A DNA stretch of 64,000 nucleotides from a virus (IMGVR_UViG_3300042348_001285); one strand, 5' to 3'; numbered from the stretch's first letter, positions 22,051 through 61,727 are shown. Program-made: numbers and translations. The notes: generated from the sequence alone by a model not told the origin.

Positions 22051-22054
22051 CAGG

Positions 22055-22445
22055 GTAAACATGGCAGGTATTTTCGGAGTTAATGTGGAACCTTGGGGTG
22101 CTTTTTGCCAGCAATGTAGAATACCAGGGTGCGTTTTCCGGTTAATGCAGAAACCACAAAATCAAAAAACCAAAATCCATTCCTTGAAATCGACTGCAGG
22201 GGAACGGAGTTACTTCTAAAATTTTTGAATTTTTTAGGACCTAGTTGAAAACAGCATGAAAAATTCTACATTTGAATGCAAATTCTGCACCCTACTATCA
22301 TATACTCGCGTAAAAATTATTTATAGTACACTCTTATCTAAATATCCATAATCAATAAGTTATCCTTATCTATGTACCAACCAATAGGTAATAGCAGTAA
22401 AGCAACAAAAAAGGGAGGGCCACCTTTCGGCAGCCCCCTTATCAG
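22055..22445. repeat. complex intergenic module, copy E (three iterons)
   Basis: Three 29-31-bp iterons are followed by the conserved hairpins and the AT-rich tail. Confidence 0.8.
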
Positions 22446-22539
22446 TAAATATTTATACTTACGGGGTTAAATTAGACCCCTGAGCCAACGACCCCGGAGC
22501 CAACAACCCCGGAGTCAACAACCCCGGCAGCCTTCACCC

Positions 22540-24929: not shown

Positions 24930-25039
24930 CGTTGCGGTGTCGGTTGGTTGGCTTCGTAATTATAGCACATGGCCGGGTGTGGATGCGGTTCGGCATGTTG
25001 ACCCCGGGGTGTGGTGGACAGTTTGTTAAGTGTCTATTT

Positions 25040-25330
25040 GCGTTGGGAGTTTGACTTTAGGGGTTTGATTCCGGGGTGTATTTTCGGAGTTAATGTGGAA
25101 CCTTAGGGTGCGTTTTCAGGGCAATGTGGAAACTCTGAAATCAAAAACCCGAAAGTCAATCCCTGAGATCCATTGCAGGGGAACGGAGTTACTCCTAAAA
25201 AAATTAAAAATTTTAGGACCTAGTTGAAAACCATCCAAAAAATTCTACATTTGAATGCATATTATGCACCCTGGGGTCTTTATATATATACTTTTTCGCG
25301 AATATATGTATAATAAGTGTTTACCTTATG
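25040..25330. repeat. complex intergenic module, copy F
   Basis: Same subfamily as copy D. Confidence 0.8.
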
Positions 25331-25537
25331 TTGTTGGTGAGTTGAATAGTTGACGACTGGGTGTGATCTCGTCGGTCTCAGTTGAGTATCGGAATGAGTT
25401 CACATCGAGTAGTTTACAGTTGGGATACAGTCTCGTTTCAGCCCCACAATAAGACTCATCCAAATAGTCAACAACTAGGGTACGGTCTCAACAGTCTCAC
25501 TTCAATCTCACAATGAGATCACACTTCAAGAGCAAAC
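25331..25537. repeat. degenerate copies of the 64-bp unit between modules F and G
   Basis: Reads '...gatacagtctcgtttcagccccacaataagactcatccaaatagtcaacaactagggtacggtctcaacagtctcac...'. Confidence 0.6.
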
Positions 25538-25865
25538 AGATGGGTGCATTTTAGGAGTAATGTGGAATCTCAGGGTGCATTTTAGGAGTAATGTAGAATG
25601 CCCCAAATCGAAAATCGAAAATCCATTCCTTGAAATCGACTGCAGGGGAACGGAGTTACTCCTAAAAAAATTAAAAATTTTAGGACCTAGTTGAAAACCA
25701 TCCAAAAAATTCTACATTTGAATGCATATTCTGCACCCTACTACTATAATCGCATATAAATTATTTAATAGAAGACTCTTATCAATGAGTTACGATATAT
25801 AAGAGTTCCTTATCAATAGGTAATAGCAGTAAGGCAACAAAAAAAGGGGGGGTAATCACCCTAAG
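25538..25865. repeat. complex intergenic module, copy G
   Basis: Two near-identical iterons 'GGGTGCATTTTAGGAGTAATGT(G/A)GAAT'. The right arm is nearly identical to copy A. Confidence 0.8.
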
Positions 25866-28991: not shown

Positions 28992-29261
28992 GGTGGGACC
29001 CGGTGCGTTTAGTTGGTGGGTGACTTTGGTAGTGTAGCATGGGGCCAGGGGCAATGTCAACACCCTGGTTTTGGTCCCTTGCTTGCTGACCCATGAATTA
29101 TAGCATGTCCGGGGGCCAACTGTGGATGGCCGGGAGTTAATGCTCATGGGCCGACACATTGCCGAAGGGATTGACAAGGCTGGGGGGAGTCGCCCTATAA
29201 TGGGCAAACAATCAGAGAAGGGGCCTTGCCCACAGGTAATAGGTTATGCCACGGGGCTATG

Positions 29262-29545
29262 CCATGGTGCGTTTTGCCGTTAATGTAGAATTTTGGGGTG
29301 TGTTTTCGGGGTTAATGTGGAATCGTCAAAATCAAAAACCCAATTTTCATTTCCCCAAATCCATTGCAAGGGAACGGAGTTACTCCTAAAATTTTTGAAT
29401 TTTTTAGGACCTAATGAAAAACGATCCAAAAAATTCTACATTTGAATGCAAATTCTGCACCCTACTATCATATATTCGCGAAAAATTTATTTATAGTACA
29501 CTCTTATCTAAATACCTATATAGATAAGTTTTGTTTATCAATGAG
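29262..29545. repeat. complex intergenic module, copy H
   Basis: Iterons 'GGTGCGTTTTGCCGTTAATGTAGAAT' and 'GGGGTGTGTTTTCGGGGTTAATGTGGAAT', plus the hairpins and the AT-rich tail. Confidence 0.8.
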
Positions 29546-29653
29546 TTTGCTGTTAGTTCTCATCAGCCATCTAACTATCGTCAAGCCAATTTAAATACCA
29601 TGCCATTTTATTCCCCGAAAGATATAGTCAGTAGGTCATCACCCTATCAGCAA

Positions 29654-33827: not shown

Positions 33828-33958
33828 TTAATTGGTTGGTGGTGGATGCCGGTTGGTGGTGGTTTACTCCGGCTATGCACCAATTGTAGCATGATGACGG
33901 GGTAGTGTCAACTCCCCATAGCTTTAACCAAATGGCAAGCATAGGGCCAACGGCAACG

Positions 33959-34234
33959 TCAACCCCCTGGCTCCAAACCCGTATTAAAACACCGGGGCGG
34001 AAACATTTGAACGTAACGGCGAACATCAGCCAAATAAATTGACCTAGACATAACGGTTATGCCGTTCCCCCCATTTAGTCGAAATTGATAGGCCAATTGA
34101 ACAGGATTCCACAGCGGGTTGATAACTTTTCCTGATTCACAATCAACATAAACCCCTATGCCAGGTGTTACAAATTCAACCTCTCTCCAACCATGGGCTA
34201 AAGCTTCTTGAAGGCTATTAAAAGAGTTAATCAT
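33959..34234 (-). CDS. hypothetical protein (91 aa)
   Basis: Intact ORF. Confidence 0.45.
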   Translation of the reverse strand: MINSFNSLQEALAHGWREVEFVTPGIGVYVDCESGKVINPLWNPVQLAYQFRLNGGNGITVMSRSIYLADVRRYVQMFPPRCFNTGLEPGG

Positions 34235-35690: not shown

Positions 35691-35820
35691 AGGTGGTAGG
35701 TGGTGGGGGCGGTTGGTTGGTTGGTCCCGGCTGGTCCCGGTGATGAACCCACTATAGCACAATGCCAAGGCAGCGTCAACTCCCGGGAATAAGTAAGTAT
35801 AAATACCTACCACACCCCCC

Positions 35821-36087
35821 CTATAGTGGAAGAGGGGGCAACCATTCCGATTCGGAAGACAGTAAAAACGCAGCCAAACTTAAAACTGCATCCTCTACAT
35901 ATTTAAACTCTTCTGGAGAAACAGAATTAGGTCTAAATACTTTAGCATAGCCTTGAATATCCAAAATAACCCAGCGCCAAATTCTCCCCCTGGTAACATC
36001 CCCACAAGTCGAATCATCCATAACCCGAAATGACCAACCTACAGGCAATCTCTCTCCTATTACAACCAAGGCATCAGGTAATTCCAT
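35821..36087 (-). CDS. hypothetical protein (88 aa)
   Basis: Intact ORF. Confidence 0.45.
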   Translation of the reverse strand: MELPDALVVIGERLPVGWSFRVMDDSTCGDVTRGRIWRWVILDIQGYAKVFRPNSVSPEEFKYVEDAVLSLAAFLLSSESEWLPPLPL

Positions 36088-36131
36088 AGTAAACCATCAA
36101 CAAAAAATAAGCAATCAAACGACACCAAATA

Positions 36132-36401
36132 TCAATTAGCAGGCTCAACCCCACCGGCAGTCACAAGCTCCCGCCAGCGTAAATCCGATGCCTTACCCAC
36201 AAGATAATCCACACACTCCCACCAATCCCCTTCCCTAACCCCATGACTCAACAATCTCTGCAATGCCACAGCTAAAACCTCAGAAGTCGGCAACGGCCTT
36301 CCACTTTCCTTCCGAGACCTTACCAATAAGGATATATCCCGGCAGGCTTCATTGCAGGCGGCTTCAATTTTGCGCGGTTGGTTGGTTGCGGTGGTATCCA
36401 T
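36132..36401 (-). CDS. hypothetical protein (89 aa)
   Basis: Intact ORF. Confidence 0.45.
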   Translation of the reverse strand: MDTTATNQPRKIEAACNEACRDISLLVRSRKESGRPLPTSEVLAVALQRLLSHGVREGDWWECVDYLVGKASDLRWRELVTAGGVEPAN

Positions 36402-36458
36402 GGTTGTTTGCAGTTTGGTAGCGGTTTGGTAGCAGTTTGGTAGCGGTTCGGCACGGGC

Positions 36459-36647
36459 TTAGAATGGCATACCGCCAGATGCCAACAGCCAGTCGCTAAA
36501 GTCGCTAAACTTGATCTTGGGTTCCAATTCGGGGGATTCCGAGCCAAATGCCAACTCATCTTTCGGACCATAAAATCCACGACCACTAGAAAGGGCAACT
36601 TGCATAGCGCCTTCTTTGACCAGAAAGATAAAACCACCTAGTCGCAT
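36459..36647 (-). CDS. hypothetical protein (62 aa)
   Basis: Intact ORF. A further short minus-strand ORF may begin near 36802. Confidence 0.35.
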   Translation of the reverse strand: MRLGGFIFLVKEGAMQVALSSGRGFYGPKDELAFGSESPELEPKIKFSDFSDWLLASGGMPF

Positions 36648-36897
36648 AACAACACGTGTGAACCGGGGGTATCACCATCACCTTTTTCTTGCTGGATATA
36701 GGCAATTAGAGACGGGTCCAGAAAAATTGACTCGCCTGTTTGACTATCGGTCAAAGACAGGAATTCATTTTTGCGCGATTGGTTGCTGGTTGCGGTGTTC
36801 ATTGGTTATCGGGTAGTTGACTTTTAAAGTTTAGGTTACGAGTTGGGAACAGTGGCGGTTCTAGGGTTCCAGTTGATCAAGTGGTTTCAGCTAAAGT

Positions 36898-37086
36898 TTA
36901 TTTCAACATCTCAGTATAATCAAGTTGGCATACAGAAAAAGCGCCTGTATTCATTAACTCCCTAAACGAGTATCTGTAAAAACAGGTAGGCATATTCAAT
37001 TTATTATTATCCCCTGTATATGTACCGTCTTCGTTGCGTGAAAATCTTTCACCATCATCTCTCCATAAGTGGGGAACTTTATTCAT
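36898..37086 (-). CDS. hypothetical protein (62 aa)
   Basis: Start and stop overlap the neighbouring gene (ATGA at 37083-37086). Confidence 0.4.
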   Translation of the reverse strand: MNKVPHLWRDDGERFSRNEDGTYTGDNNKLNMPTCFYRYSFRELMNTGAFSVCQLDYTEMLK

Positions 37087-37301
37087 AATTTCGTTGGTAT
37101 AAGATCACGATCTTCCAAGTGTTCTTCAAAAGACTTATCAGTATATCTCGCCAAGTCATAAGCAGCATCCAATAGGTCATTGAGCATTTCTTGAAGCTCC
37201 CCCTTTGGGTTCGATTTGTGAACCGATGTGATAATCGTAGTTGAACCATCTTCTACAATAATTTCTACATCATCGTAGTGACACTTTGTTGTAAGTTTCA
37301 T
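37083..37301 (-). CDS. hypothetical protein (72 aa)
   Basis: Intact ORF. Confidence 0.45.
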   Translation of the reverse strand: MKLTTKCHYDDVEIIVEDGSTTIITSVHKSNPKGELQEMLNDLLDAAYDLARYTDKSFEEHLEDRDLIPTKL

Positions 37302-37372
37302 TGGCGGTCTGGTTGTTTACTTAGTAATGGTAACAGAGAGCGGGGTCGTTCGGTTGGCTGGGGCACCAGTTC

Positions 37373-37795
37373 TCAGGTTGTTTCCCCCGCAATACTAGAC
37401 ATCAATTCTCTGGCTTGTGAAACAAACTCTTTCGTCTCTTCTTCGTGCCAGTAGTAGTTACCCTGCCAATCGTGAGTTTCCAGAAAAAACAACATTTCCT
37501 TGGCATTAAACCACTTGATTTTATTAACCAAGTCTTGACGAAGCTCTTCTACTTCTTCATATGAATTACAACCTTGGAGCCAATCGCAGCCGCTGCAACT
37601 TCCCCAGCCAAAAATAAGAAAGCCATAACTTTCCCCTTTCTTGAGGATGAGACGGCTATCCCCCTGATAATCACTGTCGTCTACTTGAAGAAGAATTTCG
37701 CCAAAACTCTCAAGTAGGGGTTGATAGTCACAGAAACTGAAATAATCCGATTCATTGTCTAGGGGATACAAACTTTTAACGATGGATAGTTCCAT
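37373..37795 (-). CDS. hypothetical protein (140 aa)
   Basis: Intact ORF. Confidence 0.5.
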   Translation of the reverse strand: MELSIVKSLYPLDNESDYFSFCDYQPLLESFGEILLQVDDSDYQGDSRLILKKGESYGFLIFGWGSCSGCDWLQGCNSYEEVEELRQDLVNKIKWFNAKEMLFFLETHDWQGNYYWHEEETKEFVSQARELMSSIAGETT

Positions 37796-37887
37796 AATGA
37801 ATTTTTCAAGGATAAAGATAGTATGGTCGGTTAAATGGTCGTTTGGTTGGTCAGAAGGGTTAATGGGCCAGTTGTTAAAGTGTCACG

Positions 37888-38619
37888 TCATTTCGATTGA
37901 TTCTCAAGAAAGGGCGCAATTCCTAGCCAATCGTTATGCGTTTCTGGGTAGAACACATGAAGATAACTGCTAATGTGCTCAGAAATTCTACTGGAAAAAT
38001 ACTTATCGGCTTTCACCAATTCGTAAATTTTTGCGTAGGTTTCTTGGTCGGGACGAATGATAACCCTGCTGATGCATTGATCATAATCATATTCACAGTT
38101 ATAATAAGGAATATCTTCAATCTCCAAATCTTCTTTATTAAGAACCCAAGGATGCCCTTTGAGGTACTTCAAAAGTTCGGGGAGATTGCAGTGTTTGTTA
38201 CTGAAGGGGGAGCCAATATAATCAAACCCACGCGGAAGAGTATATGGAACAGCATTTGAATCAAAAATTATATGGCCAGAACTGTAAAACCAAATAAGAT
38301 TCTTTTCAGAAATGTTACCTTCAAGAATCTCTCCATCACTCATTTCGTGGCATTCACAGTCCCAAAATGGATTATTAGTTTTAATGCGTTCAAAGAATGA
38401 GTCCTTAACAAATGTAGGTCGGCACCCCTTAAGAACTTTCAGGTTCCTATCTTTGACCGCATTGATAACTTCAACTACTGCGGAAGTCTTACCTGATGGC
38501 TCCACCGTGGAAGTCGTCACTTGAAGATAGGCAAGACTCTTATCCACACCGGGAATAATGTAAGATGCAATCTCCGTAAATGTTGTGTGACGAGTGATTT
38601 CAATTGATGAAAGTTTCAT
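37888..38619 (-). CDS. hypothetical protein (243 aa); the track ORF 37888..38994 is over-extended
   Basis: The upstream part of the track ORF overlaps gene 38672..39052 in another frame. The likely start is MKLSSIEI at 38619. Confidence 0.45.
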   Translation of the reverse strand: MKLSSIEITRHTTFTEIASYIIPGVDKSLAYLQVTTSTVEPSGKTSAVVEVINAVKDRNLKVLKGCRPTFVKDSFFERIKTNNPFWDCECHEMSDGEILEGNISEKNLIWFYSSGHIIFDSNAVPYTLPRGFDYIGSPFSNKHCNLPELLKYLKGHPWVLNKEDLEIEDIPYYNCEYDYDQCISRVIIRPDQETYAKIYELVKADKYFSSRISEHISSYLHVFYPETHNDWLGIAPFLENQSK

Positions 38620-38671
38620 GGTTGGTTTTGCGAGTTTGGCAGATTTTGCGAGGCCGTCCGAGTACAGCAAC

Positions 38672-39052
38672 TTACTTGATAAGCTCAACAAGGTCTGAAA
38701 ACTTACTATAAATTTCACTAAATCCGTAAGCGTGGCCATCAGCATAGGCAATCGAATAGCAGAGTCCCTTTTTGGGATTATCAGTGACGCCAAATTCTTC
38801 AAAAAGGTCTTGAATAAATTCATTTTCCTTTTTGGCCATGGCACCTCTATGCGCCCCAACCCTTTCCCCATAAGCCTCTTTATCAAAATGACTTTCAATA
38901 AGCGCATCGGGATACTGTTTCCGAACTTCGGCCAAATTCTCTCCCCTACCTTGCCATAAAATTTCACCTTTGCTATACACATAGATGGTGACATATTCAG
39001 ATTTTACCGGGTAAGGAATGTCAGCGGTTCCGTAATAATCAAAGGGTTTCAT
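38672..39052 (-). CDS. hypothetical protein (126 aa)
   Basis: Promoter at 39120-39140. Confidence 0.5.
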   Translation of the reverse strand: MKPFDYYGTADIPYPVKSEYVTIYVYSKGEILWQGRGENLAEVRKQYPDALIESHFDKEAYGERVGAHRGAMAKKENEFIQDLFEEFGVTDNPKKGLCYSIAYADGHAYGFSEIYSKFSDLVELIK

Positions 39053-39183
39053 TTTGGTTTTGGGGTTGGTTGCGGATGGGGTTGGTTTGAAGAAAGTCGG
39101 GGTTGGTGGCAGTTTGGCTTAACCCCACTATAACATGGTGCCAGGTCGTGAACCCGTGCAACCACGTAACCCTATGATTGGTG

Positions 39184-39408
39184 TCAATCTGACCTAAGAC
39201 CATTATAGCACGGTGCCAGAGCAGGGGCAATCCCTTCCCCCACTACATCTAACAACATATCCCTAAGACGGCTCATTTCTTCACGATCACCAGCCATCAA
39301 CCACCCATAGCAAACATAATTCTTACTATATTCCTCATCCAAAATTGTGAACAGAACTTTAGCCGTCCTCTCTGGGAGGACAATTGTAACACCTTTAGAA
39401 ACTTCCAT
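39184..39408 (-). CDS. hypothetical protein (74 aa); 3' end overlaps the next promoter
   Basis: The C-terminal '..APCYNGLRSD' is a translation of a promoter cassette. Confidence 0.4.
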   Translation of the reverse strand: MEVSKGVTIVLPERTAKVLFTILDEEYSKNYVCYGWLMAGDREEMSRLRDMLLDVVGEGIAPALAPCYNGLRSD

Positions 39409-39499
39409 GAACCCTCCGGGGTTGTGATTTGAGGTTGAACAGGCACACACTATAGCACAATGCTAAGGCCCTGTCAATGCGGTCGGGTGTTGTTGGCTG

Positions 39500-39795
39500 T
39501 GTGGGGTTGGTGAGTATTTATACCTAGTGCTTGGCTAGGATGAGAGCCACTAGAAGTCGTTGACTCCTATAAGTTGGTGAGTATTTATACCTAGTGCTGA
39601 TTAGGTTAGGGGCCGTCTAGTGTTGTTGACTCCTGGGGCCCGTAAGTATTTATACTTAGTGCTGGTTAGGTTAGGGGCCGTTTTGTGTCGTTGACTCCTG
39701 AGGGGTCCGTAAGTATTTATACTCACTGCCGGCTAAGTCGGAGTCCCCCCGGTGTCGTTGGCTCCACACAAGTCAGTAAGTATTTATACTCACTG
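39500..39795. repeat. tandem array of about 65 bp, five units, each carrying AAGTATTTATAC (TATAAATA on the minus strand)
   Basis: Units begin at about 39512, 39578, 39642, 39708 and 39772. The inter-unit segments are mutually similar, so this is not CRISPR. Confidence 0.85.
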
Positions 39796-39815
39796 TTTTA
39801 AAACAAAAATCCCAC

Positions 39816-39885
39816 AATTTTCGGAGGGGGCGTTAGCCCCCGACTGGTTCGGGCGCCGTAGGCGGTATCCCGAACCCAATCCCAA
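39816..39885. repeat. 71-bp GC-rich structured element, copy 2
   Basis: Near-identical to 17810..17880. Confidence 0.75.
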
Positions 39886-39927
39886 GGCAATCAACCCTCA
39901 GGCAACTAACCCATCGATCACCAACCC

Positions 39928-39990
39928 ATCGGCAACCATCGGCAACCATCGGCAACCATCGGCAACCATCGGCAACCATCGGCAACCACC
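39928..39990. repeat. microsatellite (ggcaaccatc)x6
   Basis: Direct tandem reading. It sits directly after the structured element, as the microsatellite does at copy 1. Confidence 0.85.
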
Positions 39991-39995
39991 AACAA

Positions 39996-41381
39996 TCACA
40001 AAACCTCAGGTAAAACATAGCCTTTAATCTTCGCAACCCGCTTATTCAAAATAGCCCAATCATCCAAATCCTTAAACCTAAAGTGAGCAGACCCCTTCAG
40101 GAATACCTTAAACTCAAAGAATCCCCAATCTTGCCATACCCCTGGTTCCAATCGGTCTTTGCCACAAACAGGGTCCTTAACGGCATCATAATCTTTGCCA
40201 GTCAAAGTAGATAGGACCTTAATTAGATCCGCCACCTTATGGTAATTAGACTGATAAGATTTAACAGATACAGTGCCCCCACTCCAATCTTTCTCCGCAA
40301 AGTACGGCAAAATAAACTTCTTACCGAATAAATACTGCTCATTGGTTTTCCACCCTTCTACACCATGCCTATTATCGTGATAATGCTTAGTGAAAGCATC
40401 GAAAACTTGCTCTACAGTCCTATCTAATCGCTGATCCTGAGTTGCAATAACGATCTCTAACATCCTGTAGATATTCCGCATTGTAAACGGAACCCTACTT
40501 TGTTGCTCTACAAACCTGTTAATATCTTTAAGCAATTCCGTAGTTGCTAATTTCTCCATTCCCATCTTACTAAATACAAATTCCCACGCTGATCTTTGCA
40601 GGTCTATTTGAAAGTCATTCCTTGCTTTTGCCTGGCCATTTTCCGTACAGACAAATGCGATATTTGATTTGTAAAATCCTTTCAGAACCCTATTTATACC
40701 AACTGCAGACTCAATTTGTTTGTCATAAATCCTGCAGGCTTCCACGTATCGGTTGACAATATCCCTAACGAAATTGTAAGGAATAAGCCCCTCCCCTTCA
40801 GCTTCAATTGCATCGGGACCCATAAAGAACCCATTAAACTCATCATCAGAATCCGGGGCAGGCTTCCTTAGGGTAACTAATCCTATTGCCACATCCGTAG
40901 AACGCTCCGCACCCTTAAAGACCTCACCCAAGTTCTCAACATACCCGTAGTTCCTAATTAGGGACCCCAATTGCCTACGAGCCAAGGAATATTCATTCCG
41001 CACAGTCTCCCAATTACATAAAGACACAATTTGACACCCTGGTGGTGCAATCTCGAAGGCATAGTTAATATGTTTTTCGTCCCCACTGAAAGGGGGATTC
41101 ATTATGATGAAGTCCACATGGCTTATTGCTTCCGGTTTGATATCTAGGAAGTCGGTGCCAATTAGTTTACATTGTTTTGTTGTCAGGATTGCCCTGAGGT
41201 TATCATCAATTTCACACGCCAGAACTTCACTAGCCCCATATTGCAAACAACCTTCTACCAAATTGCCAGAACCTGCGGATGGCTCCAGAATGACTTTATC
41301 AGCCAAATCGAATGGCCCCAGCATTGCGCCTATAACTTGGTCGGGAGTCGGATAATAGTCCTTGTTGTTATAGGATGGCAT
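39996..41381 (-). CDS. DNA methyltransferase domain protein (gamma-class N6-adenine/N4-cytosine type) with an about 300-aa C-terminal extension
   Basis: Motif I 'ILEPSAGSGNL' precedes motif IV 'IIMNPPF'. There is an N-terminal 'YYPTP'. I see no cognate restriction enzyme. Confidence 0.6.
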   Translation of the reverse strand: MPSYNNKDYYPTPDQVIGAMLGPFDLADKVILEPSAGSGNLVEGCLQYGASEVLACEIDDNLRAILTTKQCKLIGTDFLDIKPEAISHVDFIIMNPPFSGDEKHINYAFEIAPPGCQIVSLCNWETVRNEYSLARRQLGSLIRNYGYVENLGEVFKGAERSTDVAIGLVTLRKPAPDSDDEFNGFFMGPDAIEAEGEGLIPYNFVRDIVNRYVEACRIYDKQIESAVGINRVLKGFYKSNIAFVCTENGQAKARNDFQIDLQRSAWEFVFSKMGMEKLATTELLKDINRFVEQQSRVPFTMRNIYRMLEIVIATQDQRLDRTVEQVFDAFTKHYHDNRHGVEGWKTNEQYLFGKKFILPYFAEKDWSGGTVSVKSYQSNYHKVADLIKVLSTLTGKDYDAVKDPVCGKDRLEPGVWQDWGFFEFKVFLKGSAHFRFKDLDDWAILNKRVAKIKGYVLPEVL

Positions 41382-41528
41382 TAGGTTTCGGGGTGGTTGG
41401 TAGCGGGGGGTACGGTGGAAAAGGCAGGGTGCCGGTTAGTTGCGGTGGGAATGATTGATAACGACGATGGCCACAAGCGGTCAGACCCCAATTCCTAGCC
41501 TAAACCAAACAGCAATATTAAAGCAAGG

Positions 41529-42302
41529 TCAAACCCAATCCTCAGCCTCTTTACGAGTCATAAAGAAATGAATACCATTAGTACACTCAATCCGAATATC
41601 GTCATCATAGCTATCTGCAACCACAATCTCGCCTTCCTTGTATTCAAGGGCATTCTGAGTATGGGTAGGGGAGTTGCCGGACCCTTCCAAGACTAGGACA
41701 TAAGATGCTCGGCACTTCCTACCCACCAATGTAGAAGTTCTCTTGGCATCTTCCGGGATCAGGATTTTGATAACCCCTGTATCAACTTTTTTGAACGCAA
41801 TAAATGACCCCTCCTCTGGGACTATTTGAAAGGGGGGAAGAGTTGCACCCTGGAGATTAGCACCCCAGAGATTAGCACCCCGGAGAATTGCACCCTGGAG
41901 ATTAGCACCCCGGAGATTAGCATCCTGGAGATTAGCATCCTGGAGATTAGCACCCCGGAGATCAGCATCCTGGAGATTAGCATCCTGGAGATCAGAATCC
42001 TGGAGATTAGCACCCCGGAGATCAGCACCCCGGAGAATAGCACCCCGGAGATTAGCATCCTGGAGATTAGCATCCTGGAGATTAGCACCCCAGAGATTAG
42101 CATCCTGGAGATTAGCACCCCAGAGATTAGCATCCTGGAGATTAGCACCCCAGAGATTAGCATCCTGGAGATTAGCATCCTGGAGATCAGAAAACGGCCC
42201 AATAACGTACTCAGACCCGTTGATTAGCATTGTTTTGGAAGACATTGTTTTTGGAAAATGGGTATTGGTGGTGGGTTGATTGGGAGCGGTTTGCCGTGGC
42301 AT
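41529..42302 (-). CDS. pentapeptide-repeat protein
   Basis: About 35 consecutive A(N/D)L(Q/R/W)(D/G) pentapeptides. The underlying DNA is a 15/30-bp tandem repeat. The start could instead be at 42245. Confidence 0.85.
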   Translation of the reverse strand: MPRQTAPNQPTTNTHFPKTMSSKTMLINGSEYVIGPFSDLQDANLQDANLWGANLQDANLWGANLQDANLWGANLQDANLQDANLRGAILRGADLRGANLQDSDLQDANLQDADLRGANLQDANLQDANLRGANLQGAILRGANLWGANLQGATLPPFQIVPEEGSFIAFKKVDTGVIKILIPEDAKRTSTLVGRKCRASYVLVLEGSGNSPTHTQNALEYKEGEIVVADSYDDDIRIECTNGIHFFMTRKEAEDWV

Positions 42303-42345
42303 CGGGCCCCACTATCTCACTATAGCATGGTGCCGGGGCAGTGTC
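42303..42345 (-). promoter_or_regulatory. representative second-half promoter TTGACA-N17-TATAGT
   Basis: Reverse complement reads 'GTTGACACTGCCCCGGCACCATGCTATAGTGAGATAG'. This family 'gtcaacc...agcatgg' recurs before most genes from 30 to 62 kb. Confidence 0.65.
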
Positions 42346-42421
42346 AACCCCCATAGCTTCAACCCCTAGGTCAGATAAGTATAAATACCTACCCACCCAA
42401 ACAGTATAAGCACTAAGGCCA

Positions 42422-42856
42422 TCAGTCTATCCTAACAACAATAACCGCACTCTCCAGCAAGGTACCATCTGGCAACCTGCAAACTACAGAGCTAGTATAA
42501 GCCTTGCGCTTGCGATTACCAATCGAAACCACACCTTCCAGCCGATGCCCAGTAGGAAAACAACCCTGCAATTGCCTTTCCCCATACAACGTATAAGACT
42601 CAATGAGTCCACCCTCGCTATGGCAAATCGAAACCGCCGGAGCTTTGAATCCGATAATAGTATCATGGACTCCAACCTTATGACAAATACCCCGACAATC
42701 TTCAAGATTCGGCGAAATGTATTGTTGCCATTGCCCTACAGTTAGAGCCAAGGCGTTTTCTTTCCAGTGGGCTGTAATCGGCGGTTCCCGCTTTTGTGAC
42801 TTTGGGGGTTTTGTGGTTTTTGTGGTCTTGGGGGTGCGAAGGCTAAATGTTTGCAT
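42422..42856 (-). CDS. hypothetical protein (144 aa)
   Basis: Met follows the tandem promoters at 42880-42960. Confidence 0.45.
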   Translation of the reverse strand: MQTFSLRTPKTTKTTKPPKSQKREPPITAHWKENALALTVGQWQQYISPNLEDCRGICHKVGVHDTIIGFKAPAVSICHSEGGLIESYTLYGERQLQGCFPTGHRLEGVVSIGNRKRKAYTSSVVCRLPDGTLLESAVIVVRID

Positions 42857-43009
42857 GGGTGCAGTTTGGTTGCTGTTTGGTTGTGTACCTACCCTAGCAT
42901 GATGCCGTGGCAGTGTCAACCCCCATAGCTTCAACCAAACAGCAAGCATGGGGCCGTGGTATCGTCAACCCCCCCCCGGGTTAAGTAAGTATTTATATTC
43001 AGGCCCCTC

Positions 43010-43693
43010 CTAATCAACCCCCAAAATACCCAAATTCCTTATATCCTGTGGAGTCAACCCCACGGACTTCCTGACCCTGATGTGAACAGTCTCAAACCCC
43101 CTCTTACCTTCTACAATGTGCCGCACTTTATCGGACGGGTCATTATAGAGAACTTCTAAAATTCTATCCGAAACATCCTTACGCCTAGCAATCTCAATAC
43201 GAACTCTCTCTTCACTATCTTTATATAACGCTTCAATGAGCCCCAAAGGGAGATTCGGCTTCTTAGCAACATGAAACCTAACCATTTCATAGCCATACAG
43301 AGCCAACTTCCATAAAATAAAATCAGGAAGATCTGACTTCAGAGCAAGTTCCATTTGAATATGATTGTTGTGCCCTAATTTATCAAAAACAGCAAAATAC
43401 CATTTCTTAGCGTCTCCCCTTTTAAGGATGGCCATTGCGAACTTGAATGCCTTTTTATGGTTAAATGCCTGCTTAATTACATCCTCCGTTAATTCCCTTG
43501 GTGATTTAATAGCCGAAAGAATACGACCCTCAGAGAGTACATTAGGGTCATAGGCACATTTCTGATAACTAAACGTAACCAATTCCTTATCACTCAACCC
43601 ATCCAAAACGCTAATTAACTTATCAGCCTCTTCCTCACTCATTAGGTCGGAATACTCTGAACCCTCATACCAGATGCGAAAAAGTTTGTCCAT
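43010..43693 (-). CDS. hypothetical protein (227 aa)
   Basis: Intact ORF behind tandem promoters at 43720-43800. Confidence 0.55.
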   Translation of the reverse strand: MDKLFRIWYEGSEYSDLMSEEEADKLISVLDGLSDKELVTFSYQKCAYDPNVLSEGRILSAIKSPRELTEDVIKQAFNHKKAFKFAMAILKRGDAKKWYFAVFDKLGHNNHIQMELALKSDLPDFILWKLALYGYEMVRFHVAKKPNLPLGLIEALYKDSEERVRIEIARRKDVSDRILEVLYNDPSDKVRHIVEGKRGFETVHIRVRKSVGLTPQDIRNLGILGVD

Positions 43694-43847
43694 GTTGGTT
43701 GGTTGCTGTTTGGTTGTGGTCCTACCCTAGCATAATGCCGGGGTAGTGTCAACCCCTTGTAGCTTTAACCAAATGGCAAGCATGATGCCGTGGCAGTGTC
43801 AACCCGCCATAATTGCTAACTACTGCGGGTCAAATAAGTATAAATAC

Positions 43848-45290
43848 TTACCCCGAAACCCTGCCATCACTAATCATTATGCCTTCACTTACCAATAACT
43901 CCCGAATCCTATCTGCTTCCTTAAAATCACGATTAGCCCTTGCGATGTTGCGCATTTCAATTAGTGCCTGAATTTCATCACTTTTTGGTTTTTGAGGCTC
44001 GGAAACCTCGTGAACCAGCCCCAAAATCCCAGCTAATTCATGTAAAAGCCCCCAACGATTTAGAATTTCCCTATTTTCATCGCCTGCCGATACAATGGGA
44101 CGAGCCAAATAGAATAATTCGCTGATGGCTACAGACGTATTAAGATCATCATTGATTGCCGAAATGAAGCGGTCTCGGCTATTTTTTAAGTCTGTAGTTA
44201 AAATCAAGGGTTCATTCGTTTGCTGACTAATCCCGTGCCGACTAATTCCATGCTGACTAATTCCATTCCGGCTAGCCCCATGCCAACTATACCCATGCCG
44301 ACTATCACCCCGCCAACCAAACCCCAATGCAGCATTTAATACTTTCCAACCATTGATCGCGGGTATCATTGCCTCTGAATTAAAATCTATCGGCTTCCTG
44401 TAATGGGCTTGTAATACGAATAACCTAATGGTCATGGGACTAATGCCGGATCCAATTAGGTCCCTGATGGTTGTAAAATTCCCTAAGGATTTAGCCATTT
44501 TTTCTTCGCCAACCGTGACAAACCCGTTATGAAGCCAATACCTGGCTAGTTCAGCCCCATTGGCAGCCTCAGATTGGGCTATCTCATTTTCGTGGTGGGG
44601 AAAGATCAGATCGGCTCCACCCAAATGAATGTCAATTGTCTCACCTAGTTCTTCCCTAATCATAGCCGAACATTCAATGTGCCATCCGGGTCGGCCCCAC
44701 CCCCATGGTGACGGAAAGCCGGGTTCACTCGCCATGGCACCCTTCCAGAGGGCAAAATCAAAAGGGTGGCCCTTCTTTGAGTCGCTATTAACCTGTTGTT
44801 GGCCAAGGTTGCGACCACTTAGTTTCCCATACCCCTTAAACCCCATAACCGAGAAGTACATATCACCACCCATAGAATAAGCAAATCCCTTATCGGCAAG
44901 GTCCTGAATCATGGTGCGGATTGCATCAAGACTACGGGTAACCCTTGGCATTTTGTCGGCGGGCAGGATGTTCAATGCACCCATATCCCCCTCAAAGGCC
45001 CTGATATTACGCTCACTGACGGCTTCGATTGTTGTTCCTTCAGAGTTGGCTTTGGCTAGAATTTTATCGTCGATATCCGTATAATTCTGAACAAACGTAA
45101 CCTCATACCCATGCCACATAAAATTACGCCTTAAAACATCCCACACAATATAACTGCGGGCGTGCCCTAAGTGGCATAAATCATAAACGGTAACACCGCA
45201 ACAATACATCGACACTTTGCCTGGAACCAGCGGAGTAAACTTTTCCTTGGCTTTAGTAAGGGTGTTGGTTAGGGTAATGTCGTTAATCAT
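43848..45290 (-). CDS. cysS: cysteinyl-tRNA synthetase with an internal HGIS repeat insertion
   Basis: HIGH region '[15 protein letters not shown]' and KMSKS region 'KMAKSLGNF'. The insertion '..[27 protein letters not shown]..' is encoded by a 15-bp tandem DNA repeat at about 44215-44290. Confidence 0.85.
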
Positions 45291-45423
45291 TGTATTTGCA
45301 GTGGGGGGGGCTGGGGGCTGCGTCAATTACTTATGTGTCCTTGTTAAATGGAGAAATTGCCAACTGAATCGCAAAGTGCTGCAATAAGTGCGGGCACATA
45401 TGAAATATAAATAACCCCCCTTG

Positions 45424-45843
45424 TCAATCCTTGTCAATCTCCCCTTGAGACGAAAGAATCACCAATTTTTGCAGATAAAGAATGTCATCTTCCGTGAGAG
45501 GTTCCAATCCTTCGTAGATTTTCCGCCAATAGCCCTCTCCTTGAGGGGTTTCAAACCAAGCGAAGGCATATATTAAAGATAGGAGATCACCATTCAGAAC
45601 TTCAATGATCACTTCCCGATCTAAACTCGTAGGGAAGTTAGTTTCTTTCGTTTCTTTCATATCTTTTGCCATCTCACTCTTTTCTTCGTCCTTAAGACGC
45701 TCCACTTCTTTTTGGAGATCAGCGAGTTTATGGCCAAATTTTGTGAGATCAACCATTTTCCAAGTTGGTATTGATGTAAAACATTCACCGATTAGAGTCC
45801 GAAATTCCTCAATTTTGGTTTCCAGTTGTTCGTACTTTCTCAT
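45424..45843 (-). CDS. hypothetical coiled-coil protein (139 aa)
   Basis: Intact ORF. Confidence 0.5.
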   Translation of the reverse strand: MRKYEQLETKIEEFRTLIGECFTSIPTWKMVDLTKFGHKLADLQKEVERLKDEEKSEMAKDMKETKETNFPTSLDREVIIEVLNGDLLSLIYAFAWFETPQGEGYWRKIYEGLEPLTEDDILYLQKLVILSSQGEIDKD

Positions 45844-45958
45844 GGGGGGTCGATAGTTGGGTTTGTGGTTGCTGTTTGGTTATGGGCCGATCGTAAATCC
45901 AATGTGGGCCCAATGTAGACTCAATGTGTACCCATTATAGCATGGTTCCGAAGCAAAG

Positions 45959-46648
45959 TCAATCCCTGCCTTTGGCAAGATACACCCGGTCAAAAATCAT
46001 AAACGGCAATTCACCATTTGCATTGCCAAGATTCTTCTCTACATACTCAATAATAAGGGCCTGCATTACTTTGGCGTACTCCGGGTGAGACTCCACAAAC
46101 TTGATTGCCCCTGGTGTTAATGCCGATGCAATCGTGGATAGGGCTTCGGGTTCCAAGGAATTAGCTTCTTTCGGTGTTTGTTGTGGCCCCTGTTCGGGGT
46201 CGGAGGAGTCTGGATCCGCATCCAGAATTTCAATTTCCCTAATATTACGTCCTGTAGAACAATAGTTTTCTCCATTATTGTAATAAAGCAATGTTCCCCT
46301 ACCCTCCGGGTAGAACACATACGAGTTAGTAACATATGGGCGAAGCTTCCCAGTGTAAACTTCATTATGACAAGTAGTTACTTTGACTACATTATCGACA
46401 TACTTAGAAAGGTCAATCATTGGTTGCGGTTTGGGGGTTGATAGTTGGATTTTCACAATGTCATTACCATGGGGGGTCCAGCCTTCGTAGTAACAGCCAT
46501 CTATTTTATAGGATAATCCGCCGATAGTGTAAGGATATGATTCGGGGCCATTGGCTAATAACAGGGTATTAAGAATAATTTCCCCGTCACGAAGCTCAAC
46601 ATCAACTTCTTTGCCGACAAATTGTGAGAGATTTAGTTTCAGTGTCAT
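45959..46648 (-). CDS. protein with two tandem 'FVGKxVxVxLRxG'-type beta-barrel-like domains
   Basis: 'LNLSQFVGKEVDVELRDG' and 'IDLSKYVDNVVKVTTCHN'. Paralogous to 33138..33827 and 46724..47419. Confidence 0.55.
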   Translation of the reverse strand: MTLKLNLSQFVGKEVDVELRDGEIILNTLLLANGPESYPYTIGGLSYKIDGCYYEGWTPHGNDIVKIQLSTPKPQPMIDLSKYVDNVVKVTTCHNEVYTGKLRPYVTNSYVFYPEGRGTLLYYNNGENYCSTGRNIREIEILDADPDSSDPEQGPQQTPKEANSLEPEALSTIASALTPGAIKFVESHPEYAKVMQALIIEYVEKNLGNANGELPFMIFDRVYLAKGRD

Positions 46649-46723
46649 AGTAAAAAAAAGGGGGGGATGATCTGAATGGTTGCTATTTAGCTTTAATCTG
46701 GGGTACGGTTACTGGGGGGTCCA

Positions 46724-47419
46724 TCAATCGTCCATAACCTCAAAAGTTACCTTAATGCGGGAACCCGGTGAAAGATTTCCTTCCATATCAAAATATTCCT
46801 TTGGGATTAAATTTTTGGAGTGGTCAAACATGGTCTCCAGATTCCCTAGGAATTGCAATTTTTCCCTGGTTTCTTCATCATCCCACATCTTAAGGAAAAA
46901 GGAGCTTTTTTTGACTGATGGTTTTACTGATGGTTCGTCCATGGTTGTTATGAGTGGTTCAGGAATTAAGACTTCAATTTTTACAATATCAAAGGGTGAT
47001 AATCCTGAAAAAGGGTCAATTGGATCCAGATAATGGCCGGCATAATGACCACATTGTGTATAACGCGACCCTCCTACAGAGTAAGGATAAAGCGGATTAT
47101 TAGGGGTAGTTTCAACTACACGACAATAGGAAGTCTCTGCATTACGATATGTAACAAAAACGGTTTTTCCAACAAACTTTGAAAGGTCAATAGGCATTGA
47201 TGGCCATGAGCAGTTGTGGTTCTGAACCAATTCCCTCAACTTATCCACAGTAAAACGCTCCCGGCCATACTTAGCGATGTCCCTACCCTCCAGCAGCTTC
47301 CACATCCTACGCTTGGCGCAATCCCAACTCCCATAGGCCCACGCATGGCAAGCAAGCCCGTACTGAGATCGCAGGGAGTCGGTTAGGGGGTTAAGGGGAT
47401 GGTCGAATGGTGTGGGCAT
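46724..47419 (-). CDS. protein with the same 'IDLSKFVGKTVFVTYRN' domain
   Basis: Third member of the paralogue family. Confidence 0.55.
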   Translation of the reverse strand: MPTPFDHPLNPLTDSLRSQYGLACHAWAYGSWDCAKRRMWKLLEGRDIAKYGRERFTVDKLRELVQNHNCSWPSMPIDLSKFVGKTVFVTYRNAETSYCRVVETTPNNPLYPYSVGGSRYTQCGHYAGHYLDPIDPFSGLSPFDIVKIEVLIPEPLITTMDEPSVKPSVKKSSFFLKMWDDEETREKLQFLGNLETMFDHSKNLIPKEYFDMEGNLSPGSRIKVTFEVMDD

Positions 47420-47827
47420 TGGGTTGGTTGGTTGGTTGGTCGGGGTTGGTGGGGGGTACTATAGCACGGATGCGCCACAGGTATGCCCGTGTTGTTAACA
47501 CCCCCGAAGTCAATAAGTATAAATACTTACTTAACCCTGGGGCCAATAACACCCTTCCGTACCAATCCTGGAGTCAATACCCCGAAGTCAACTACCACGC
47601 AGCGCCAACCTACCGCCACCACCACCAACCTGAGTATTCAATCCCACTCCATTGGCCGCCTGAGCACCCATTCGAGTTCCACGGAGATCATTTTGATTGT
47701 CGGGGGGACAGGGATGCTCGGGGCACCAAAGCAGCGCCCTCACCCCGTTATTATACCATGCTGGGGAGACCTTGGCAAGATGCTATCGGGAGTCGTTGAC
47801 TGTTACGGGTGAGATAAGTATTTATAC

Positions 47828-48109
47828 TCAGTGACGTTTCTTTGAGTTTCTGCCACTGTACCCACTGACTGGGATTGGGTTACCGTTTAGCTCTCTTTCA
47901 TCTGCTAAATGCCACGCTATGGCCTCTGCTATTGCGGCTAATTTTTTACGTGCTGGTTTAGTGTAGAGGTATAATCCTTCCGTTTCTTTGTTATTTGGGT
48001 CTCCTTCAATTTCGGATGTCAATTGGACAAGTTCCTGCTTAGAGTATTTTTTATAGTATGTGTTTGAAGTTGGCATTATGTTGGGGGAAAAAGAAGGGGC
48101 CATCGCCAT
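47828..48109 (-). CDS. hypothetical protein (82-93 aa)
   Basis: The start is either 48109 or 48076. Confidence 0.45.
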   Translation of the reverse strand: MAMAPSFSPNIMPTSNTYYKKYSKQELVQLTSEIEGDPNNKETEGLYLYTKPARKKLAAIAEAIAWHLADERELNGNPIPVSGYSGRNSKKRH

Positions 48110-50292: not shown

Positions 50293-51462
50293 TTAAACAG
50301 GCATTACCAAATATGTGTAACATGCCCCATCATTGGAATTAACCGGGGTCAAAACTGCTGGTGTTGTCGGGGCGTTCATTTGAATTTTAACTTTATCTGC
50401 ACCCATAACCTTAGTCTTCAGGACTTCAATTAGGTAACGCACATTAAATGCGATTGTGATTTCCGGACTATTACCAATGACCGTCAAACTCTCATTAAAT
50501 GACATCATTCCTTCGGCTTGAGCACTAATTGTGGCCCCAACCTCAGTAAACTCAAACTTGACTACATTATTATGGGCATTAGCCACAATGGCAGCTTGCT
50601 CAAGTGTAGTCAGCAGAGAAAGACGATCAAAGACAGCAACCGACTTGAAATTATCAGGAATCAACTGCCGATAGTTAGGGTATTGCCCATCTGCCAATCG
50701 GAATTGAACCTTATAGGTGCCGTACACCATGGTAACATCTTGCTTGGATACAGTGAAGGAAACCGGACTAAACTTAGGCTTAGCTCCAATAATCCTGGCA
50801 ATCTCTGCTAGGATCTTAGCGGGCATCGTAAAGTTAAATTCTGTTTCCTCAGTATCAACAATGTCATCCAAAGTCAAAACTGATAACCTGATCCCGTCCG
50901 TAGCAGCAAAAGTCAAAGAATTGCCAGCAAGTTGTAGGTTGACCCCGGTAAGGAGCATCTTGGCCTGGTCCGAACTTGCCGAAAACAGGGTACTTCCCAA
51001 ACCAGAAACAAACTCAGCAGATTGCACACCGAACGTTATTGAATCGGTAGTAATACTGGCTGTGACTGGCACACTCGGAAAATCATCTGCTGAGATCGTA
51101 TTGATCTTAACTGCTGCCCCCTTGTCCGAAGAAACCAACAACTTACCTTCAGAATCACCGGGGTCAAAACTAAGGATGACCGCCGAAGTCTTAGGCATCC
51201 CGTTTACGATATCCTTAAGGGTGGACACCGAAGCAGTAATTGAACCTGGAGACTGCACCGATGCAGCAATATCGACTGATACTTGTTTGATGAAACCGGA
51301 ATTATTTCCCAGATCATACACCGTGGCCACCAACTTACCTGTATCAGGAACAGCGGTAAGCAACACATTGAGGAGAACAGGATGCTTAGCCCGCTTATCA
51401 TAGTTCCGTGCTAGAACTTTCAAGGCTTGGCTGAAATCAGATTGGGCAACTACGGCTTTCAT
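50293..51462 (-). CDS. dnaN: DNA polymerase III beta sliding clamp (bacterial DnaN type, three-domain)
   Basis: 389 aa. 'TDGIRLSV' matches the beta-clamp TDGHRL motif. The C-terminus '..YLVMPV' is typical of DnaN. Confidence 0.8.
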   Translation of the reverse strand: MKAVVAQSDFSQALKVLARNYDKRAKHPVLLNVLLTAVPDTGKLVATVYDLGNNSGFIKQVSVDIAASVQSPGSITASVSTLKDIVNGMPKTSAVILSFDPGDSEGKLLVSSDKGAAVKINTISADDFPSVPVTASITTDSITFGVQSAEFVSGLGSTLFSASSDQAKMLLTGVNLQLAGNSLTFAATDGIRLSVLTLDDIVDTEETEFNFTMPAKILAEIARIIGAKPKFSPVSFTVSKQDVTMVYGTYKVQFRLADGQYPNYRQLIPDNFKSVAVFDRLSLLTTLEQAAIVANAHNNVVKFEFTEVGATISAQAEGMMSFNESLTVIGNSPEITIAFNVRYLIEVLKTKVMGADKVKIQMNAPTTPAVLTPVNSNDGACYTYLVMPV

Positions 51463-56963: not shown

Positions 56964-57713
56964 TTACATTTTCATTGTAGCATCTAGACGCAAGCCCCCA
57001 GAGAAGATAACCTTAGCCATTGTGTCAGGTAGCGTCCCCAGTAGATGCAGAGAGTCTAAAGTGGAAAACATAAACATTTTGTTAAGCTCCTCCCTTACCC
57101 TTTCTCTGGAGACGCAAGCTAGCATTTCTACTGCCAAGTCACTGCGCAATACGGCATAAGTTTCATCATCGGGGATGAATCCTTTGGTAATTTGGAACCT
57201 GAACCCTCTGAGTACCCTAAGGCCGTCCTCTCTGATTCTGTCAGCAGGGTTCCCAACGAAACGGAGAATTTTGTTCCTAATGTCGAGAACTCCCCCGAAA
57301 GGGTCAATCAGGGATCCATCAATGGCCTTGGCAATTGCCCCACTGGAAAAGTCCCTTCTGGCTAAATCATCATGCAAAGTACCCGGCTTCACCCAATCAG
57401 GGTGACGGCCATCGCTGTAGGGACCATCTTTGCGGGCTAGTACAAAATCTGCGACGGTGGTGCGGGCTTCTAGCGCATGGCCCTTTGGGACCCGCGCACG
57501 GATGGTTAGAAACTCACGGCGAGATTCGAAGATTTGAAAACCTTGTTCAGAGAGTTGAGCTTCCATTGCTAAGAAAGCGCTATCGGCCGTGGCGAAGACA
57601 CCCTTGGGAGCAACAACAGAGAAGTCAATGTCCTTGGATGGAATCCCAAGTAAACTATCCCTGACACAACCCCCTACCTCAAAAAATTGAAATTTTTCCA
57701 CTTGCTTTGCCAT
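56964..57713 (-). CDS. class-II nucleotidyltransferase (CCA-adding enzyme / poly(A) polymerase head-domain family), short form
   Basis: 'FEVGGCVRDSLLGIPSKDIDFSV' matches the GGxVRDxLLGxxxxDxD signature. The protein is only 249 aa, so head and neck domains without the tRNA-binding body. Confidence 0.7.
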   Translation of the reverse strand: MAKQVEKFQFFEVGGCVRDSLLGIPSKDIDFSVVAPKGVFATADSAFLAMEAQLSEQGFQIFESRREFLTIRARVPKGHALEARTTVADFVLARKDGPYSDGRHPDWVKPGTLHDDLARRDFSSGAIAKAIDGSLIDPFGGVLDIRNKILRFVGNPADRIREDGLRVLRGFRFQITKGFIPDDETYAVLRSDLAVEMLACVSRERVREELNKMFMFSTLDSLHLLGTLPDTMAKVIFSGGLRLDATMKM

Positions 57714-61618: not shown

Positions 61619-61727
61619 AATGGGATCCAAGGGGTATAGGTAGGTGCAGGGACCTAAGGACCGGGTGTCAAACCGCATCAATTACACTTAGTATAGCATA
61701 CCGCTAACCAAAGTCAATGCCCTAAGG

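Follow-up and report, generated by a model that had tools for sequence, protein, structure and literature searches.

Intergenic gaps in the 64,000-nt stretch of viral DNA IMGVR_UViG_3300042348_001285 (hereafter the window, meaning the whole stretch analysed) repeatedly carry a short motif built around TATAAATA, an 8-mer identical to the core of the T4 late promoter. We tentatively read this motif as the apex of an intergenic quasi-palindrome with a GTAT-WW-ATAC core, which would form part of a stem-loop and early-promoter element at the ends of gene cassettes; the full element, up to about 34-44 nt long, may mark the 3′ boundary of early-gene cassettes, a proposal we hold just as tentatively. 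The motif is symmetric, pairs on the sense strand, stands behind genes, has a loop that flips between related genomes, and coincides with the junctions at which those genomes differ. The window is the hyperplastic early region of a large (jumbo) phage, with nearly all open reading frames (ORFs) on the minus strand and TTGAC-N16-18-TAnnnT promoters distributed 35 to 7 between the minus and plus strands. Motif copies, promoters, and accompanying elements located below are placed on the minus strand, unless otherwise stated.

A symmetric motif with a flipping centre

At no more than one mismatch, the window contains 10 occurrences of AAGTATAAATACTT, against 0.01 expected from dinucleotide-preserving shuffles, and the 8-mer TATAAATA occurs 17 times against 2.0 expected by chance, so that the recurrent motif and the T4-type 8-mer described in an earlier note, made from the sequence alone, are real. 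Searching for the 10-mer GTATAAATAC with up to one mismatch gave 12 intergenic copies. The positions in the earlier note proved right to within a few bases (cores beginning at 35797, 42379, 43838, and 47517 in its plus orientation and at 42989 and 47818 in its minus orientation), and its five-copy array was found as described, with cores at 39514, 39581, 39646, 39713, and 39780, TATAAATA on the minus strand, and a period of 65-67 nt; one further copy, at 22449-22458 (GTATAAATAT), was absent from it. Placement just beyond stop codons was also correct, the gap from stop to core being 0 nt at 47818 and 43838, where the stop codon itself forms the TRR of the left arm, 11 nt at 42989, 14 nt at 35797, and 33 nt at 42379, and longer at two places, namely, 22449 (82 nt) and the array (206 nt). 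What failed was the distance of 100-150 bp given for the next promoter: a -35-like box lies 16-20 nt past most cores, and complete promoters follow at 17-85 nt.

The window was compared with nine diverged relatives (L017/L174, L182, L183, L185, L187, and L258-L261), each taken with its coding strand as plus. L017/L174 is part of a 279-kb IMG/VR contig, and two near-identical contigs are known besides the nine. Together, the ten genomes hold 77 copies of the motif with 70 distinct sequences, many of them related by descent. In coding-strand orientation, 41 distinct aligned copies gave the consensus TRR-GTAT-(AA or TT)-ATAC-YYAC, an 18-bp imperfect palindrome, with a weaker pyrimidine-rich extension on the promoter side that ends in CCC 9-11 nt downstream. 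The information pattern of these copies is the same for either direction of the centre, and the conserved positions reach symmetrically past the TATAAATA 8-mer. In most copies of the window and the relatives, a GTYRAC hexamer follows 16-18 nt downstream of the core, either as GTTGAC, the -35 box of the next promoter, or as the inverted box GTCAAC, which is present in every array unit, behind the 47818 copy, and behind the copy at position 9500 of L187.

Without exception, the central dinucleotide is AA or TT. Among the 36 distinct single copies of the ten genomes, the coding strand reads AA in 19 and TT in 17, bearing out the mixed orientation that the earlier note had flagged; in the array copies, TATAAATA is always directed with the genes. 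The locus orthologous to 42379 reads GTATTTATAC in six genomes; in L258 it reads GTATAAATAC with an identical right arm, its left arm having been remade into one more complementary to the right. Behind the 88-aa gene (35821-36087), the copy has a TT centre in the window and an AA centre in L187. "Orientation" resides in the centre alone and is uninformative, two orientations being apparent because a 4-nt loop (TAAA or TTTA) flips freely. By analogy with other quasi-palindromes, the flip would be an inversion of the hairpin loop through template switching or recombination within the palindrome.

These properties bear directly on the suggestion in the earlier note that the motif matches the gp55-type late-promoter consensus of T4-like phages. 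In such a T4-type late (or middle) promoter, TATAAATA would be the -10 element for a gp55-like phage sigma factor, the array would comprise five tandem late promoters, and the opposite copies would act as antisense promoters. The exact 8-mer in every copy and the common direction of array copies and genes are consistent with this, and the likeness to T4 includes even the common TATAAATAC(T) extension. Late promoters with TATAAATA are documented in T4-like, ViI-like, rV5-like, and some jumbo phages (CBB), and in other viral contigs the 17-mer TAAGTATAAATACTTAC stands 0-25 nt before start codons, the classical late-promoter context. In the window, however, every copy precedes a -35 box or a sigma70 promoter and never a start codon, and the copy at 22449 lies directly before a terminator-like hairpin. 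Half of the single copies are directed against all genes yet are equally conserved, conservation is symmetric beyond the 8-mer, and the centre flips at the orthologous 42379 locus, which a directional promoter element would not show. The motif is also regional: when 2.9 million viral contigs were scanned in full, the exact 17-mer in the 279-kb relative proved confined to this region, no copy lies in the 20 kb flanking the window, and the motif occupies about 8 loci within about 25 kb. Finally, no gp55-, gp33-, or sigma-like protein was found among the 117 window ORFs (Pfam, PHROGs) and the gene calls of 10 kb on each side, about 84 kb of the ~280 kb, and the sliding clamp is a DnaN-type rather than a gp45-type protein. 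With a symmetric unit of random orientation, a sigma70 promoter downstream, a regional distribution, and no gp55 found, the late-promoter reading is unsupported, and we consider it highly improbable. Two alternatives that the earlier note had listed, AU-rich 3′ hairpins and a palindromic protein site, are the readings favoured by the evidence. Candidate antisense sigma70 promoters within the array (TTGACT-N15-17-TATTTA, plus strand) were rejected, their -10 element lacking the T at -7 found in all 35 promoters.

Sense-strand hairpins and mosaic junctions

In the four TT copies of the window, coding-strand stems of 13-17 bp extend beyond the 18-mer and include several G·U pairs. The copy at 47500-47543 (core 47517-47526, GTATTTATAC on the coding strand) lies in an 18-bp interrupted sense-strand hairpin with a folding energy of -18.0 to -18.4 kcal/mol (z -3.1), against -11.3 for the antisense strand. 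At 43825-43864 (core 43838-43847), where the core is abutted by the TAA stop of the cysteinyl-tRNA synthetase (CysRS) gene (43848-45326), the corresponding values are -14.0 (z -2.7) and -8.6 kcal/mol. A discrete 34-nt palindromic element at 42365-42398 (core 42379-42388) forms a sense hairpin of ~13 bp and ~-15 kcal/mol (-14.9 to -15.1, z -2.7; antisense, -2.2), and the copy at 35785-35819 (core 35797-35806), 14 nt past the stop of the 88-aa gene and 17 nt ahead of a TTGACG box, folds at -15.6 kcal/mol (z -2.5) against -5.5. Folding of the reverse complement is weak because each G·U pair turns into C·A, and the long stem, being dependent on G·U pairs, exists only in the sense transcript (or the nontemplate DNA strand).

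The same bias was found across the ten genomes. With one representative per locus, the sense strand was more stable in 10 of 12 independent loci, for a combined Stouffer z of -7.0 against shuffled flanks with the core kept, and the mean folding energy of the 36 distinct single copies was -11.9 kcal/mol for sense and -7.0 kcal/mol for antisense. Some AA copies of the relatives form similar sense hairpins (positions 9500 and 11519 of L187, 528 of L183, 18982 and 19861 of L258, and 16641 of L259), and the strand effect is therefore independent of the centre. Despite substitutions, the hairpin is retained in all orthologues that carry the element. Orthologues of the 47517 copy fold at -17 to -23 kcal/mol in the sense orientation and at -6 to -10 in antisense; counted by hand, this locus shows six changes that preserve sense pairing, five of which break the antisense stem, and one or two nonpreserving changes at the very base of the stem. 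An automated ungapped count of pair preservation (16 kept versus 28 broken for sense and the same for antisense) was spoiled by indels and register shifts and was not relied on.

Gene-content differences between the relatives begin and end at or beside the elements, and the conserved blocks form a mosaic among the genomes with breakpoints that fall repeatedly there. The 34-nt element at 42365-42398 is present in seven genomes, precisely missing in L187, and undetectable in L185, with alignable flanks. Of the 47517 copy, L185 has kept just the left half (…GTAGGTATT), and at the palindrome centre, the breakpoint, the sequence becomes unrelated. In L174, the gene at 43010-43693 and its motif copy are replaced by other genes, with homology resuming just past the element; this genome also lacks the 88-aa gene with its copy at the corresponding place, and L187 has the pair between two other cassettes. 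In L259, another gene precedes the CysRS-type core and its downstream flank, the two parts meeting at the left edge of the 18-mer. The array varies as well, with 5, 4, 4, 4, 4, 2, 4, 3+4, and 4 units among the relatives (range 2-5); in L260, the arrays of 3 and 4 units (15644-15787 and 17468-17677) flank the DUF4942 methyltransferase gene. Each of these two arrays is preceded by the same GC-hairpin element, and the methyltransferase gene is bracketed by direct repeats in this genome.

Under our preferred interpretation of the motif as a hairpin apex, the stem-loop would act in early transcripts as a cistron-end signal that punctuates read-through from the upstream cassette. Ahead of the next promoter it might serve as a pause or insulator; alternatively, it might act as a 3′ barrier or processing site and so stabilise the message upstream of it. 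In the DNA, the short homology or secondary structure for the gain, loss, and movement of cassettes would come from the element and the near-identical promoters, as has been proposed for the promoter-early stem-loop (PeSL) cassettes of T4-type phages, and the match to TATAAATA would be a by-product of an AT-rich palindrome apex.

The junctions could instead reflect a dedicated recombination site, either a serine-recombinase-type crossover or a one-strand hairpin for an HUH- or integron-type enzyme; such machinery would actively insert, excise, and move gene cassettes. The precise presence or absence of 34 nt at the hairpin base, the L185 breakpoint exactly at the palindrome centre, the relocation of cassettes together with the motif, with junctions on either side of the core, and the strand specificity of the hairpin are all consistent with such a site, as are inverted half-sites with extended arms around an asymmetric AA/TT dinucleotide, the layout of the serine-recombinase sites hix, gix, and res. 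However, the window and its flanks yielded no recombinase, integrase, resolvase, or Y1/HUH transposase family, and the nine relatives show 0 inverted segments between oppositely oriented copies. In 185,579 reference genomes, an 18-mer common to three loci was hit 26 times, always singly and about as often as chance would give, and hence there is no multicopy host family. Moreover, template switching at quasi-palindromes and recombination between near-identical promoters explain the junctions without a dedicated enzyme. We judge a dedicated recombination site unlikely, and the same low probability attaches to an active strand-specific cassette-mobilising system (like integron attC sites, like the REP/RAYT pairs discussed below, or based on a serine recombinase) with its enzyme encoded elsewhere in the ~280-kb genome. 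An invertible promoter segment between the 47818 and 47517 copies was rejected, as no relative shows the inversion and a gene lies between the copies in relatives.

Two known families of stem-loop elements invite comparison. One is that of the PeSL cassettes of T4-type phages (Arbiol et al. 2010, PMC2839356; Comeau et al. 2014, PMC4122927), described as composites of a stem-loop and an early promoter through which indels arise in hyperplastic regions (PMC4122927). Like them, the element, set among small ORFan genes of a hyperplastic region, joins a stem-loop to an early promoter close to the sigma70 consensus, and close relatives differ by indels, replacements, and relocations that start and stop at the motifs. 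Unlike the PeSL, which is a GC-rich bidirectional terminator, it has an AU-rich invariant apex, a G·U-rich lower stem, and no A/T runs; the flipping loop and the tandem array of 2-5 units are further differences, and the phage has a DnaN clamp and no T4 core gene in about 84 kb. With the repetitive extragenic palindromes (REPs) and bacterial interspersed mosaic elements (BIMEs), it shares short extragenic imperfect palindromes, often just past stops, that form mRNA hairpins, occur as single or clustered copies, and show presence/absence polymorphisms. REPs, however, number hundreds genome-wide, whereas here about 8 loci occupy ~25 kb of one phage genome; the array consists of direct repeats, whereas REP/BIME copies alternate; and neither a RAYT/Y1 transposase (Y1_Tnp, window ORFs) nor copies in reference bacterial genomes were found. 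The element is a member of neither the PeSL nor the REP family and represents a new variant of intergenic palindromic or stem-loop-promoter cassettes.

Possible recognition of the double-stranded core

Several observations weigh against an RNA hairpin as a sufficient explanation. Simple selection on an RNA hairpin does not predict a near-invariant 10-bp core that includes the loop, nor does it predict that this core is kept in array units with unpaired flanks, behind a terminator-like GC hairpin; such invariance would rather be expected if the sequence itself were recognised or if recombination homogenised the copies. Coupling on the DNA itself is suggested by the -35-like box, which stands at a constant distance of ~17 nt whichever way it points. 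The copies at 47818 and 42989 and array units 3-5 have an AU-rich stem of only 6-7 bp. The array-internal units and the copies at 47818 and 42989 (left arm in coding sequence) form an apex stem of 6-9 bp with no strand preference, and RNA folds of the whole array on both strands (z -2.1 and -2.9) revealed no convincing larger structure. No U-tract follows the stems, so that the element is not a canonical intrinsic terminator, and a terminator scan showed no enrichment (17 versus 16.5 expected). In addition, the descent shared by many of the 70 distinct copies means that the counts overstate independence, and the effect of the stem-loop on RNA is itself predicted from sequence.

Core invariance, array preservation, and fixed spacing favour a dimeric protein on the double-stranded core, instead of or besides an RNA function. 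The motif would then be an operator for a dimeric phage or host DNA-binding protein, a 16-18-bp dyad TRRGTAT-WW-ATACYYA centred ~57 bp upstream of some early promoter starts, which we regard as possible though rather doubtful, yet as a serious competitor to the hairpin, above all where the array of 2-5 units is concerned. On this view the array would cluster sites for high-affinity binding, and the bound protein would switch these promoters or, like a stoperator repressor, block read-through. The near-invariance of the 10-bp core over the 70 distinct copies, with variable flanks, argues for such an operator, and the irrelevance of the centre direction, seen in the 19:17 ratio and the flip at one locus, fits a symmetric dimer with an uncontacted A/T centre. 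Single copies and array units alike combine the 18-bp dyad with the constant 16-18 nt to the GTYRAC or -35-like box, and cores in the array units are perfect without extended RNA pairing. Stoperators of the mycobacteriophage L5 type are asymmetric 13-mers with one orientation to transcription that are bound by a known repressor. Proximity to stop codons would be a parallel with these sites, as both are short conserved sequences repeated near stops in short gaps of co-oriented genes, but the motif is a palindrome and its phage is probably lytic. Against an operator, no helix-turn-helix, ribbon-helix-helix, or other DNA-binding family was found in the 117 window ORFs, most of which match no family at all, or in the flanks. 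Double-stranded binding also leaves the strand-specific, G·U-dependent stems unexplained and predicts neither the precise excision nor the half-site remnant, and the array period of about 65-68 bp is nonintegral in helical turns.

A site for a global regulator of the host was considered as well. NtcA sites are predicted in cyanophage genomes, the host is probably a picocyanobacterium, and GTA-N8-TAC occurs twice in the 18-mer, as both GTATAAATACTTAC and GTAAGTATAAATAC fit it; NtcA could in this way tie a subset of the early promoters to the nitrogen status of the host. Yet NtcA would not require the invariance seen in the N8, the outer T and A of TGTA...TACA are missing, the site centre lies near -56 to -60 rather than -41.5, and the symmetry axis of the 18-mer is 2 bp off either GTA-N8-TAC. 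We therefore find NtcA binding most improbable. LexA, CRP, CIRCE, HLR1, and Pho-box consensus sequences did not fit.

Neighbouring elements, the early region, and its phage

The remaining copies differ in their surroundings. The copy at 47814-47831 (core 47818-47827, GTATAAATAC on the coding strand) is abutted by the TGA stop of the gene at 47828-48109, is followed by the inverted box GTCAAC at 17 nt and a promoter at 39 nt, and is conserved in L174, L185, L187, and L258-L261. That promoter, TTGCCA-N17-TATAAT of the sigma70 type at 47750-47778, lies between the 47818 and 47517 copies. At 42985-43001 (core 42989-42998, ATATAAATAC), the copy stands behind the gene at 43010-43693, with a TTGACG box 20 nt downstream. 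The tandem array spans 39514-39791, each of its five 65-67-nt units consisting of the core and, 15-17 nt on, GGAGTCAACGACAC, and it sits between a GC-hairpin element and the early promoter TTGACA-N17-TATAGT at 39449-39477. The GC hairpin GGGGGCTAACGCCCCC and the TCCGAAAATT element that follows it occupy 39800-39897 and are duplicated at 17806-17921 with 92% identity, with a related copy at ~17740-17760; the combination is found directly upstream of the motif array in every relative. Further sigma70-type early promoters are TTGACG-N17-TATAGT at 35751-35779, the downstream half of a composite module, and TTGACA-N17-TATAGT at 42319-42347, 31 nt past the 42379 element. The outlying copy at 22441-22466 (core 22449-22458) has three 15-nt GGGGTTGTTGACTCC repeats on one side and, on the other, a hairpin with a T-run that resembles an intrinsic terminator. 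Downstream of it, a 64-nt tandem repeat of 3.7 copies with 97% identity covers 21815-22049.

Many promoters of the window share the longer consensus ggggTTGACA-N17-(catgc)TAnnnT. Tandem "pseudo-promoter" units at 42866-42973, 43700-43808, and 33887-33965, upstream of true promoters, consist of TTGACA-N13-ATGCTTGCC and then aTTTGGTTaAAGCTAyrGGGG, that is, a -35 box without a -10 box. The sequence GTAATTATAGCA, found 10 times on the plus strand, corresponds to the TGCTATAATTAC -10 regions of minus-strand promoters.

Accessory genes of the early region encode cysteinyl-tRNA synthetase, a DUF4942 DNA methyltransferase, a pentapeptide-repeat protein, and a DnaN-type sliding clamp, together with CCA/poly(A) polymerase, polynucleotide kinase, RNA ligase, thymidylate kinase, and HNH endonuclease genes and two tRNAs. 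No DNA match for the region was obtained by megablast against 50,697 phage records. Homologues of the clamp (50293-51462, minus strand) with 79-100% identity are encoded on metagenomic contigs of up to 272-284 kb, and its closest cellular relatives are the DnaN proteins of Cyanobium and Prochlorococcaceae, at 40% identity. From these two lines of evidence, we infer that the phage probably belongs to a clade of uncultured 270-285-kb jumbo phages with freshwater picocyanobacteria as hosts.

An RNA/tRNA maintenance cluster is made up of CCA/poly(A) polymerase, an AAA_33 kinase, a metallophosphatase, RNA ligase, CysRS, and two tRNAs (56964-57713, 61133-61681, 43848-45326, 13953-14025, and 62328-62412; in L228, 14663-15295) and suggests a tRNA repair and supply module in the early region. 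The pentapeptide repeats are encoded by a 15-nt tandem repeat of 22.9 copies (41845-42187) inside the gene at 41529-42302, whose length varies among near-identical contigs, from 257 aa in the window to 198 aa in L002 and a split gene in L001. Just past the methyltransferase stop, the 10-nt sequence CCATCGGCAA is perfectly repeated 6.3 times in tandem (39926-39988).

The first half of the window is composed of other repeated intergenic modules. A second, AT-rich repeat of about 250-300 nt is present in 8 minus-strand copies between 15020 and 29570 (19700-20060, 22040-22400, 29210-29570, 25480-25840, 16980-17340, 15020-15380, 24940-25300, and 21400-21700), with the invariant blocks AGGGTGCAGAATaTGCATTCAAATGTAGAATTTT and AGGTCCTAAAA…TTTTAGGAGTAACTCCGTTCCCCTGCA and no Rfam match; for the whole window, Rfam returned one tRNA and nothing else. 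The earlier note had ascribed ACTATAAATAATT on the minus strand to modules of this half. These occurrences are real (19981, 22318, and 29488, minus strand, within gtgtacTATAAATAattt), but they belong to this different ~300-nt, 8-copy repeat. Three of the six repeat copies aligned there have TATAAATA and three have TATTAAATA, and the 8-mer is therefore not conserved in it. The ~300-nt repeat could be a noncoding RNA or a second type of regulatory module. The 12-mer ACAAAACTTAAC is also distributed over this part of the window (6243-27790), with 15 occurrences on the plus strand and 1 on the minus strand.

Beyond the relatives, a scan for two cores 50-62 nt apart returned one true relative and otherwise mostly unrelated arrays of clustered regularly interspaced short palindromic repeats (CRISPR) with a repeat starting with GTATAAATAC. 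These CRISPR-like arrays occur in unrelated viral contigs, L012, L024, L026, L031, and L052 (IMGVR 3300042503) and L016, L018, and L053 (3300045988); their repeats, GTATAAATACTCCCTTGATAGGGAGTTGGATTGAAAC and a second type containing GGAAGTATAAATACGGCAGTCTTCCAATC, were matched through the 10-mer alone.

For phage biology, these results caution that TATAAATA outside T4-like genomes is not to be read as a late promoter. They show an uncultured clade of very large, probable freshwater cyanophages organising and reshuffling its early accessory genes as units of promoter, gene, and palindromic end, and they carry the idea of the mobile regulatory cassette beyond T4-type coliphages, into a jumbo phage lineage unrelated to them. 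The end elements thereby offer concrete sites at which passive shuffling, by template switching and short homology, can be weighed against shuffling driven by an enzyme.

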